From: Escherichia coli
GTDB taxonomy: Bacteria; Pseudomonadota; Gammaproteobacteria; Enterobacterales; Enterobacteriaceae
Assembly: GCF_050320075.1 (NCBI RefSeq)
Contig: NZ_CP190019.1
DNA length: 64,000 bases
Reading direction: 5' to 3' (one strand)
Made by a program: the position numbers. Below, piece after piece: positions 1 through 3,000 of the stretch (position 1 is its first letter; each line of letters starts with the position of its first letter).

Positions 1-3000
1 GTTTCTATCAGCTGTCCCTCCTGTTCAGCTACTGACGGAGTGGTGCGTAACGGCAAAAGCACCGCCGGACATCAGCGCTATCTCTGCTCTCACTGCCGTA
101 AAACATGGCAACTGCAGTTCACTTACACCGCTTCTCAACCCGGTACGCACCAGAAAATCATTGATATGGCCATGAATGGCGTTGGATGCCGGGCAACCGC
201 CCGCATTATGGGCGTTGGCCTCAACACGATTTTCCGCCATTTAAAAAACTCAGGCCGCAGTCGGTAACCTCGCGCATACAGCCGGGCAGTGACGTCATCG
301 TCTGCGCGGAAATGGACGAACAGTGGGGATACGTCGGGGCTAAATCGCGCCAGCGCTGGCTGTTTTACGCGTATGACAGGCTCCGGAAGACGGTTGTTGC
401 GCACGTATTCGGTGAACGCACTATGGCGACGCTGGGGCGTCTTATGAGCCTGCTGTCACCCTTTGACGTGGTGATATGGATGACGGATGGCTGGCCGCTG
501 TATGAATCCCGCCTGAAGGGAAAGCTGCACGTAATCAGCAAGCGATATACGCAGCGAATTGAGCGGCATAACCTGAATCTGAGGCAGCACCTGGCACGGC
601 TGGGACGGAAGTCGCTGTCGTTTTCAAAATCGGTGGAGCTGCATGACAAAGTCATCGGGCATTATCTGAACATAAAACACTATCAATAAGTTGGAGTCAT
701 TACCAACCGGATGGAGACATTGCAGGATTAGGTTTGTGAGTGGATGCATAGTCATATATTGCACCTCCAGCCACACCCCCAGCAGCTGCTCCAATTCCTC
801 CTGCAACAAATTGTCCGGATAGTGTTCCTATAGCCATCGCAATATCACGCCCTGAAGCACCACCAGAAACAGAATCTAATTCATTTAGAGTCAGAGTTCT
901 CATATGATCTCCTTTTTATCTTATCGGATATTGAATAATAATTATCACCAACAAAGTAACATATTGCAGACATTAATATAGAGAAGCAAAATGTATGCAT
1001 GGATAAAAAGTCCTTTCCTCTAAAAACACAATCATATATAGCTAATGCAATATATATTGCGGTGGCATTTATTATAAATGCAAATAACAACTCTAATTTT
1101 GTTCTTTTTCTATCCATTACTTTTTATCCCATTACTTTCTATCCCATTACCATACAAACACTAACGATAATGATTATCGTTCACATAGTCAAGAGTGAAG
1201 GGGAGGGGGCCCTCACCCCCTATAAGGGGTCCGCTTGGAAAACGGATTTCCCCACGTCAAGAGAATTGAGTTGAACGAGTGGTTACATCCAAGCCAGCTA
1301 ACTCACTGAACGTAAAGTATGTACGAAATGCTCCTACCGTCCGATAACCATTTGGCTTACTTCCGTACATTCCCTTGCGTAGATGTTCAGAATTGTACGA
1401 TTTCGGACACCAAAACCGCTGTTGTCCCGCCATTCTGGCGATTCCTGAAAGTCATTTGACTAAAAAATAGTCTTAACGTGGTTTATTTTCCGAATTCCAA
1501 GCGGCCCGCCCTACATTTATACAATGTCCGGCAGGGCATAAAAGGGGCGAAAGAAAATACCTGGGCGAAGTCGCTGAACATCATTCTGGCGATTTCAATA
1601 AAGGTACTTGCTCACGCTCTGTCATTTTCTGAAACTCTTCATGCTGCATTTCGATTTTCCTTCTAAGATCATAACTCGCATACCTGTTCTTTTTATGTAT
1701 ATCTATATCTATTTTTGTGACGAGTTCAAACCACAATGTTCGCACTCCCCATGCAGCGTTATGAAACATTTCCGCAACGGCTATAGAGTCTGTATTAACT
1801 GCTTCAGTCATGTAGTCGCTAATACGTTCAGCGGTAATTTTCGTTATTTCATCGTAATTCATTTTATCTCCTACAAGATTATTTAATGGAATGCAAAATA
1901 TCTGGCCTGATAATAATGTTCCAGAATTAATATCTGCAGGCTATGTTAAGTTGTCCCCACACACAATCTACCTGTTTTCTCGTGTGTGCCACAGGAGCAA
2001 TACATAAATAGTCTGGCCATTAAGTTCGTAACCAGCTGCTGTAGATCTTAGTTTGTTTTCTTTGACATTAGGCTCGGCCCTTATAGCCTTTGGTCTTCCG
2101 GCCACAGTTGTTGGTTTTGTTGGCGTAGTTATTGCAGGTGCTATTGGTGCATTTATCGATGATAAATTTGTTGATGAGTTGAATCACAAGATCATAAAAT
2201 AATTAAAAGGAAGGCAGTGTTACTGCCTCCCTTTAAAATATTTAATGACAAGCAATGGCATCAGTAAAATCGCATATGTCATGGTTAAAACAGTAAAGTA
2301 AATGGAGCAGTATAAAATAAAAAGAGTGATGACATTATGAGATAATAATTTAAAAAAACCACCTGCTGTTGTTAGTTCCAGATTATAGAACAGTGTGATA
2401 TAAATCAGAATGGCATAAAAAACGGCCCCCCAGAAACAGGATTGCACAACAAGTTTTCTTGTTACTGGCTTTATGATTTCTCTTGTCTTATATGTGCAAA
2501 GAAAAACGAGAATACCCATAACTGGTGCTGTCTTGTTGTAGTTTGACATAAGTGCTGTCATGACGGGATCATGCAATGATGTAATAGAAGGGAGAAATGC
2601 AACCTTATTATATAAGTAGTACAGCACTTGAGAATATGGATTATTTATCCGAAGTATTAATATAGCCATTAATGGAATAATACCGATTATGGAAAATGCA
2701 TATAATATTTCGTTTGCTTTCTTGTTCTTATCTTTATTGCTGGTCATATATATACCTTTTTGTATTTTTATATATAGATTATATATCAGAGTTCTCAATA
2801 TATTTCCAGTATTTAATGGAGTGTACAGATATATATCTTATATATGGTAGTTCAGGTGCTTCCCTACCATTTTTAACGGCATATCCGGCAAACAATGTTA
2901 TGGGGAGCCTCTCTCATGGGGTTCGTTCGCCGGTGTAAGCGTTAGCCAGCCGCGAACTCTATTATCTTATTAACTTATAAGGAGTTATGTATGGAAACCT

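Follow-up and report, generated by a model that had tools for sequence, protein, structure and literature searches.

Diverged backbone alleles and a putative Tn3-derived miniature element in repeats at the colicin and parMR loci of a probably mosaic F-type plasmid of Escherichia coli

The stretch analysed here, 64,000 nt of Escherichia coli contig NZ_CP190019.1 (assembly GCF_050320075.1; hereafter the window), carries at its left end the remains of a colicin V module joined to a colicin B/M (ColBM) locus, and towards its right end the genes parM and parR. The colicin V module is a remnant in which the immunity gene cvi alone is intact, the precursor gene cvaC being truncated by an IS1 element, and neither cvaA nor cvaB was found in the window. 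Between cvi and the colicin locus lie a short non-coding segment, a gene for a 93-residue protein (orf93) and the last codons of a toxin gene of the ParE/RelE family, which abut a 3′ remnant of the colicin B gene cba; cbi, cma and cmi make up the intact remainder of the ColBM locus. Versions of the non-coding segment, of orf93 and of the toxin gene recur 3′ of parM–parR, and between the two repeat sites lie the RepFIB region and, in addition, a multiresistance region that carries nine IS26 copies.

The repeats were defined by self-BLAST of the whole window, which returned three pairs (Table 1). Segment A, with copies A1 at the colicin locus and A2 beside parMR, is a direct repeat with 92.9% identity over 451 alignment columns, comprising 31 mismatches and one 1-bp gap. 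Segment B, with copies B1 and B2, is an inverted repeat (1225–1429 against 56432–56226) with 92.8% identity over 207 columns. The E-values of 0 for A and 7e-84 for B exclude chance similarity. The third pair (624–706 against 57213–57131) is inverted and 100% identical over 83 bp, and consists of the terminal 83 bp of IS1 and an IS1 fragment that has been cut by IS26. A first, sequence-only reading of this DNA had reported the A and B pairs with these same orientations, naming an identity below about 80% as the finding that would speak against them; self-alignment puts both pairs above that level. Its position for segment A is likewise borne out, apart from a start that lies about 10 bp earlier than reported, while segment B spans about 207 bp and not about 260 bp: beyond this length, the similarity is extended merely by CTATAAG and the tip of an inverted repeat (IR), across a 13-bp indel.

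The two sites have their closest relatives in different groups of plasmids. Over 6 kb, the left region shares 100% identity with many IncFIB/FIC plasmids of the ColV/ColBM type, a lineage named F18:A-:B1 (PMC10295773). Over 5.5 kb, the right-hand site shares 100% identity with pHN7A8 as well as with hundreds of IncFII resistance plasmids from Klebsiella, Salmonella and E. coli; as in the F33:A-:B- plasmids of the pHN7A8 type, the second copies and their surroundings, from parMR to rmtB/blaTEM-1, are 99.6–100% identical to pHN7A8. Unlike pHN7A8 itself, the window holds only a fragment of that plasmid, of at least 17.7 kb, set beside IS26 in a ColV/ColBM plasmid; the fragment begins 234 bp from the IS26 copy at 45216–46035.

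The individual copies follow the same division. A1 shares 99.1% identity with the IncI plasmid pEC27-3 and 98.7% with an F plasmid, compared with 92.9% for A2, whose own identity to pHN7A8 is 100%; for B2, the figures are 99.0% to an element on pCol156 and 92.7% to B1. The mark of a recent intraplasmid duplication, namely that the copies are each other's closest relatives, is thus absent for both A and B, and the earlier description of the segments as duplicated does not hold, since each copy is far closer to relatives on other plasmids (99–100%) than to its counterpart in the window (about 93%). A1 and A2 are therefore alleles that were inherited separately, and the B pair likewise does not derive from a local duplication. 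With its ColV/ColBM-type left part and its pHN7A8-type right part, the window is very probably a mosaic F-type plasmid, in which segment A is represented by separately inherited backbone alleles and segment B by two copies of a small non-autonomous transposon. A ColV/ColBM virulence backbone of the F18:A-:B1 type would have gained a pHN7A8-type IncFII block next to IS26, each parental plasmid contributing its own version of A and of B. The repeats first seen in the sequence are thereby confirmed and their first interpretation is supported in part; what they reflect is largely ordinary plasmid mosaicism, together with a miniature transposon that may be new within a class already known. More generally, repeats of 93% identity in a large resistance and virulence plasmid can be homeologous backbone alleles and dispersed miniature transposons and need not be duplications.

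Table 1. Positions of the repeats and of the surrounding features in the 64,000-nt window (TIME, Tn3-derived miniature element; ORF, open reading frame; PGAP, annotation of the closest record)
Feature	Position	Strand	Basis or remark
IS1 (IS1B family), cut on the left where the window starts and truncating cvaC with its right end	1–706	+	insA/insB ORFs; IS1B transposase annotation in closest records
Remnant of cvaC (microcin/colicin V precursor), interrupted by IS1 after codon 66	706–903	−	67-aa ORF; PGAP 'colicin V, incomplete, missing C-terminus'
cvi, colicin V immunity, intact, 78 aa	881–1117	−	annotated in closest records
Complete TIME, 284 bp here (family 284–286 bp)	1226–1509	+	nine copies aligned together with their flanks; segment B copy 1 makes up the first 204 bp
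orf93 copy 1, conserved plasmid gene, predicted three-helix bundle	1581–1862	−	
Segment A copy 1: orf93, 105-bp intergenic spacer, last 20 parE codons	1583–2032		self-BLAST
ParE/RelE-family toxin gene, 3′ remnant, last 20 codons and stop	1968–2032	−	tblastn with intact toxin; RelE/ParE-annotated matches end at 2032
cba 3′ remnant, last 55 codons and stop (170 bp)	2033–2202	+	alignment to intact cba; PGAP 'colicin-B, missing N-terminus'
cbi	2220–2747	−	intact ColBM remainder
cma	2991–3806	+	intact ColBM remainder
cmi	3856–4209	−	intact ColBM remainder
Tyrosine integrase beside cmi	4387–5178		
IS26, nine copies (span 15616–63638)	starts at 15616, 17958, 23984, 29436, 34383, 36243, 45216, 57216, 62819		
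IS6100	about 30341–30966		
pHN7A8-derived block, about 17.7 kb, holding A and B copy 2	46270–64000		pHN7A8 11638–29366 aligned to window 64000–46270, 99.6%
parM and parR (stbA/stbB), pHN7A8-type backbone	53618–54933	+	
orf93 copy 2	55056–55337	−	92.5% amino-acid identity to copy 1
Segment A copy 2	55058–55508		self-BLAST
ParE/RelE toxin pseudogene	55447–55684	−	two in-frame stops, one frameshift, first 12 codons missing (tblastn)
Segment of unknown origin, 541 bp, between parE pseudogene and partial TIME	55685–56225		found solely in pHN7A8-type plasmids
Partial TIME, element positions 1–206, right end missing (segment B copy 2)	56226–56431	−	
12-bp partial IR tip (56432–56443), then 38-bp Tn3-family IR (56444–56481) resembling that of MITESen1	56432–56481	−	
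IS1 end fragment, 83 bp, cut by IS26 at 57216–58035	57131–57213	−	inverted 100% repeat of 624–706

Segment A is a backbone module of IncI and IncF plasmids, of which the window holds two diverged (93%) alleles. A-like sequence occurs in more than 5,000 plasmids of PLSDB, across every identity band, and in the intact relatives that were examined, i.e., one IncI plasmid and two IncFII-type plasmids, the gene order is repA, RHH antitoxin, parE and orf93. The intact toxin of an IncFII-type relative matches the Pfam family PF05016 (ParE_toxin) at 1.8e-17, and its antitoxin matches RHH_1, which relates the module to the ParDE-type toxin–antitoxin modules found downstream of repA in IncI and IncFII plasmids. 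Unlike in those modules, both toxin copies in the window are dead, one being a 20-codon remnant and the other a pseudogene; there is no intact PF05016 ORF and no antitoxin is present. For the second copy, the PGAP annotation of the closest record ('RelE/ParE family toxin, frameshifted, internal stop') agrees with our tblastn alignment. Elsewhere in the window, a gene for a YacB toxin of the RelE/ParE type lies at 13176–13454 (73416–73694 in record NZ_MN823988.1) beside a 3′–5′ exonuclease gene; it is too distant from parE to be detected by tblastn.

The 93-residue ORF noted earlier in segment A is indeed present in both copies, which differ at 9 synonymous and 7 non-synonymous codons. Enterobacterales account for all of the 202 homologues, most of which lie on contigs of plasmid size; in nearly all of them the frame is open and 93 residues long, and the AlphaFold model consists of three helices with a pLDDT of 94.6. 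No match to orf93 was found in Pfam, NCBIfam, PHROGs or PADLOC, none of the 202 homologues carries a Pfam domain, and comparison of the model with the PDB gave only generic helical-bundle matches that are not significant (best E = 0.33). Taken together, orf93 looks like a real and intact gene.

A second, divergent ORF of 78 aa had been described as frameshifted in the copy at the colicin locus. This ORF (55366–55602, plus strand) runs antisense to the parE pseudogene and is open only in the pHN7A8-type copy; in the first copy and in both intact-toxin lineages examined (one IncFII-type, one IncI), the frame is closed by a stop after 41 codons. A real 1-bp indel breaks it in the first copy; the frame has no Pfam match and is unannotated in every record examined. 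The 78-aa ORF is an artefact and not a gene, and what had been taken for a frameshift is the ancestral state. As this case illustrates, an ORF recognised by eye may turn out to be an antisense artefact of a decayed gene.

Segment B belongs to a short element, complete at the colicin locus and partial beside parMR, that starts with GGGG and ends with CCCC and has 38-bp terminal IRs of the form GGGG...ACGYTAAG. The left IR (IRL) is GGGGTCCGCTTGGAAAACGGAAATTTTCCCACGCTAAG and the right IR (IRR) is GGGGTCCGCTTGGAATTCGGAAAATAAACCACGTTAAG; the two agree at 31 of 38 positions. Compared with known Tn3-family ends, they agree with Tn21 at 28–29, with IMU at 26–31 and with Tn3 at 19–23 of 38 positions. 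The element codes for no transposase; the ORFs on its two strands are short and overlapping (58 and 46 aa), none of them long enough for a Tn3-family transposase. Perfect 5-bp target duplications flank two copies of the family, TTCTT on an Enterobacter ColE1-like plasmid and TGGTA on a Salmonella IncHI2 plasmid. Complete copies were found in at least 12 unrelated contexts, and at least 80% of the element is present in 735 PLSDB records. Among species-representative genomes, a first scan gave no match and a degenerate pattern gave two, in Cedecea colo and in an Enterobacterales bacterium. Judged by its sequence, segment B fits the definition of a TIME (PMC4133298, PMC13367494) and would represent a 286-bp family of non-autonomous Tn3-family transposons with Tn21-like ends. 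Its movement would presumably depend on a Tn3-family transposase supplied in trans, and the two copies in the window would come from different sub-lineages, their opposite orientation being happenstance.

Like known TIMEs, segment B is short (under 500 bp) and non-coding, has 38-bp IRs, and resides mainly on plasmids of Enterobacterales; 5-bp target duplications flank two of its copies, and, like MITESen1, it has many copies without flanking repeats. Unlike the catalogued TIMEs, it has an unrelated interior, and its neighbours are bacteriocin, toxin–antitoxin and defence genes rather than resistance genes; unlike composite TIMEs (TIME-COMPs), it was not seen to form a two-copy transposon. When the interior was compared with four catalogued elements (TIME244, IS101, IMU and MITESen1), Smith–Waterman scores remained at the level of shuffled sequences. 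The sequence of MITESen1, also used for the IR comparison, was taken from Table S2 of PMC13367494. The element appears to be undescribed: no description was found in the literature, ISfinder lying outside the search.

Two other identities were considered for segment B. An Rfam scan of both regions gave nothing above noise, and a known RNA gene or a replication-control RNA was dismissed on that ground. Its homologues on small Col plasmids had raised the possibility of a cer/Xer site or an oriT fragment, which the Tn3-type terminal repeats and the 5-bp duplication dismiss. No clean empty site for the window copy was found in the F plasmid used for comparison, which shares the right spacer and is unrelated on the left side. 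Further scars of the Tn3 family occur in the window at 10765–10830, 11578–11608, 13531–13568, 14281–14318 and 59211–59248; they comprise a 66-bp IS101 fragment (97%), a MITESen1-like IR, a Tn1721 IR and two Tn3/Tn2 IRs.

At the colicin locus, the direct repeat ends exactly where the colicin B fragment begins, as had been noted from the sequence. The junction is exact to the base: segment A and the ParE-annotated plasmids align up to position 2032, and homology to intact cba starts at 2033 (at 2033 or 2036, depending on the intact-cba plasmid). Side-by-side comparison with an intact-cba plasmid shows that parE and cba are joined without microhomology. Of the 511-residue pore-forming colicin, only the last 55 residues are kept. 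Intact ColBM plasmids have the order parM–parR–hypothetical–cba–cbi–cma–cmi–integrase, and at least 13 plasmids carry the order repA–RHH–parE–orf93–TIME–cvi with an intact toxin gene. The block IS1–cvaC(truncated)–cvi–TIME–orf93–parE(3′ end) would have been joined illegitimately to the last 55 cba codons, an event that would have deleted the first ~456 cba codons and most of parE. In the simplest history, a block of the repA–RHH–parE–orf93–TIME–cvi type met a ColBM plasmid, with breaks inside parE and cba, and IS1 probably removed cvaAB and the end of cvaC later or separately.

The junction is present in 298 PLSDB records, and the whole arrangement in 240 of 5,426 complete E. coli genomes (4.4%); the parE–cba junction is old, and the plasmid lineage in which it is fixed is widespread. 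The window thus holds a base-exact record of the loss of colicin B in a widespread ColV/ColBM lineage. Christenson and Gordon (Microbiology 2009) reportedly described recurrent loss of cba that leaves a short remnant. A colicin M that adjoins a truncated cvaC and is not accompanied by colicin B has been reported (PMC6723558), and the order found here, cvaC(truncated)–cvi ... cba remnant–cbi–cma–cmi, is that of ColBM plasmids in which a truncated cba is linked to microcin V genes. What has not been described for such plasmids in the literature examined is the intervening TIME, orf93, the parE remnant and the base-exact parE–cba junction. Upstream of cvi, a Fur-box-like palindrome (CGATAATGATTATCGTTCAC, 1165–1185) lies 40 bp from the left end of the TIME. 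The cvi–cvaC operon is iron-regulated, and the palindrome is consistent with that.

If RecA acted on the direct A pair, about 53.5 kb would be deleted or resolved, and if it acted on the inverted B pair or the IS1 ends, about 55 kb would be inverted; the earlier view of the repeats as substrates for inversion or deletion is thus formally correct, though the case for it is weak. RecA-dependent exchange needs about 25–50 bp of perfect identity (minimal efficient processing segments), and the longest perfect tracts, of 53 bp in A, 36 bp in B and 83 bp in the IS1 ends, reach this minimum, as the active formation of isomers by such inversion and deletion would demand. However, a divergence of 7% strongly depresses homologous recombination in mismatch-repair-proficient E. 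coli, and the A and B pairs do not offer the long, near-identical homology of an efficient RecA substrate, in contrast to the nine 820-bp copies of IS26, which are 99.4–100% identical and occur in both orientations. A chimeric query for A1×A2 or B1×B2 recombinant junctions found none among 72,556 PLSDB plasmids, few of which carry both copies; its top matches were natural cvi–TIME–orf93–parE plasmids. Furthermore, related plasmids differ by inversions of IS26-bounded segments (PMC10295773). Active isomerization through these repeats is accordingly improbable, and the A and B pairs are expected to be minor substrates whose recombination would be rare and secondary to IS26-driven rearrangement.

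The 83-bp IS1-end pair, which was absent from the sequence-only reading, is a better inversion substrate than segment B. Its right-hand member, the IS1 fragment, cuts the N-terminus of an open 167-codon frame (56635–57138, minus strand) annotated by PGAP as 'RNA-binding domain-containing protein'; a related plasmid has a gene with a DUF262 domain at this place.

Several observations weigh against parts of the explanation adopted here. The history of fusion is read from relatives, and in the closest records, NZ_CP123241.1 and NZ_MN823988.1, the content between the copies deviates from that of the window by 1.5 and 5.7 kb. A and B are neighbours in both parents and differ there in relative orientation, a feature for which the separate inheritance of the sites does not fully account; an intramolecular transposition, such as one in pHN7A8, or an inversion may lie far back in their history. 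At the IRL, the same CTATAA borders the two copies of B; we read it as the AT-rich target preference of the Tn3 family, but it could reflect shared insertion ancestry. About 11 other contexts of the TIME, the window copy included, have no target duplication, so that transposition is evident for the family and not for the window copies. Finally, PGAP labels orf93 as a partial pseudogene, a label that we attribute to the reference protein it uses.

The proximity of A and B at both sites, the IS1 end on the B side of both, and the termination of the first copy exactly at the cba stub are also what would be left by an intraplasmid duplication, in which a region of about 1.3 kb beside parMR was copied, partly inverted, into the colicin locus, replaced the 5′ part of cba and then diverged to 93%. 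This is very hard to reconcile with the relationships of the copies, each being 99–100% identical to other plasmids and only 93% identical to its partner, or with their distribution: the first arrangement occurs in hundreds of plasmids without the pHN7A8 block, and the second in at least 886 pHN7A8-type plasmids of Klebsiella, Salmonella and E. coli without colicin genes. Moreover, the sequences between and around A and B are wholly different at the two sites. A duplication within the plasmid is thus highly unlikely, and the separate inheritance of the two sites in a mosaic plasmid is retained.

The contexts of the complete TIME point to a further aspect of this element. In 6 of about 12 distinct contexts, a small sample that was not rigorously collapsed or controlled, it lies close to bacteriocin genes: 94–108 bp from cvi, 15–165 bp from E-type colicin operons (pCol156/pF437-5), 0.7–1.3 kb from the genes for colicin Ia/E1-family immunity and colicin Ia on IncI/K plasmids, 96 bp from the gene for a microcin-type ABC exporter, 31 bp from mcjD of the microcin J25 cluster, and 392 bp from the colicin S4 lysis gene. 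The remaining contexts have toxin–antitoxin or defence genes, and classic ColV plasmids retain just the first 57 bp of the TIME beside cvi. No report linking a miniature inverted-repeat transposable element (MITE) or a TIME with a colicin or microcin was found in the literature searched.

Within the element, five motifs of the form [TC]GT[AC]CG[AG][AT][AT] occur in mixed orientation at element positions 95–184, compared with 0.07 expected for this motif, which was defined post hoc. They are found in both TIME copies of the window (1320–1409 and 56246–56335), and the array is kept in copies of only 69–72% identity from Enterobacter and Cedecea. The motif presumably resembles the half-sites of γδ/Tn3-type resolvases, and from its sequence the array may be a res-like site array. 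The interior shows no similarity to the res-bearing TIMEs IS101 and TIME244, the res sites of Tn3, Tn21 and Tn1721 not being among those compared.

The proximity to bacteriocin genes, the scarcity of target duplications and the half-site array would fit an exchange of cassettes by recombination, analogous to that of resistance genes in TIME-COMPs. It is conceivable, though doubtful on the whole, that the TIME is an undescribed Tn3-family element that serves as a border and recombination hotspot of bacteriocin, toxin–antitoxin and defence cassettes on plasmids of Enterobacterales. If true, the link would carry the role of TIMEs, recognised of late for resistance genes, over to the genes of bacterial warfare, and annotators would gain a further small element to check for where modules meet.

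A programmed, site-specific switch acting on res-like sites in the TIMEs through a plasmid-encoded recombinase (the Tn2 tnpR in the pHN7A8 block, or the integrase beside cmi) could draw on the conservation of the five motifs in both copies and on the presence of these recombinase-family genes, but a Tn3-family resolvase requires its res sites in direct repeat on the same molecule whereas the TIME copies are inverted, the motif is post hoc and the interior around it does not resemble that of the res-bearing TIMEs compared (IS101, TIME244), and the chimeric query of PLSDB gave no isomers, which makes such a switch scarcely credible. As a minor observation, a DUF6404 gene that lies close to TIME remnants in the window (about 11034–11381) is also found repeatedly next to the modules for colicin V and colicin Ia, and could be part of bacteriocin cassettes.

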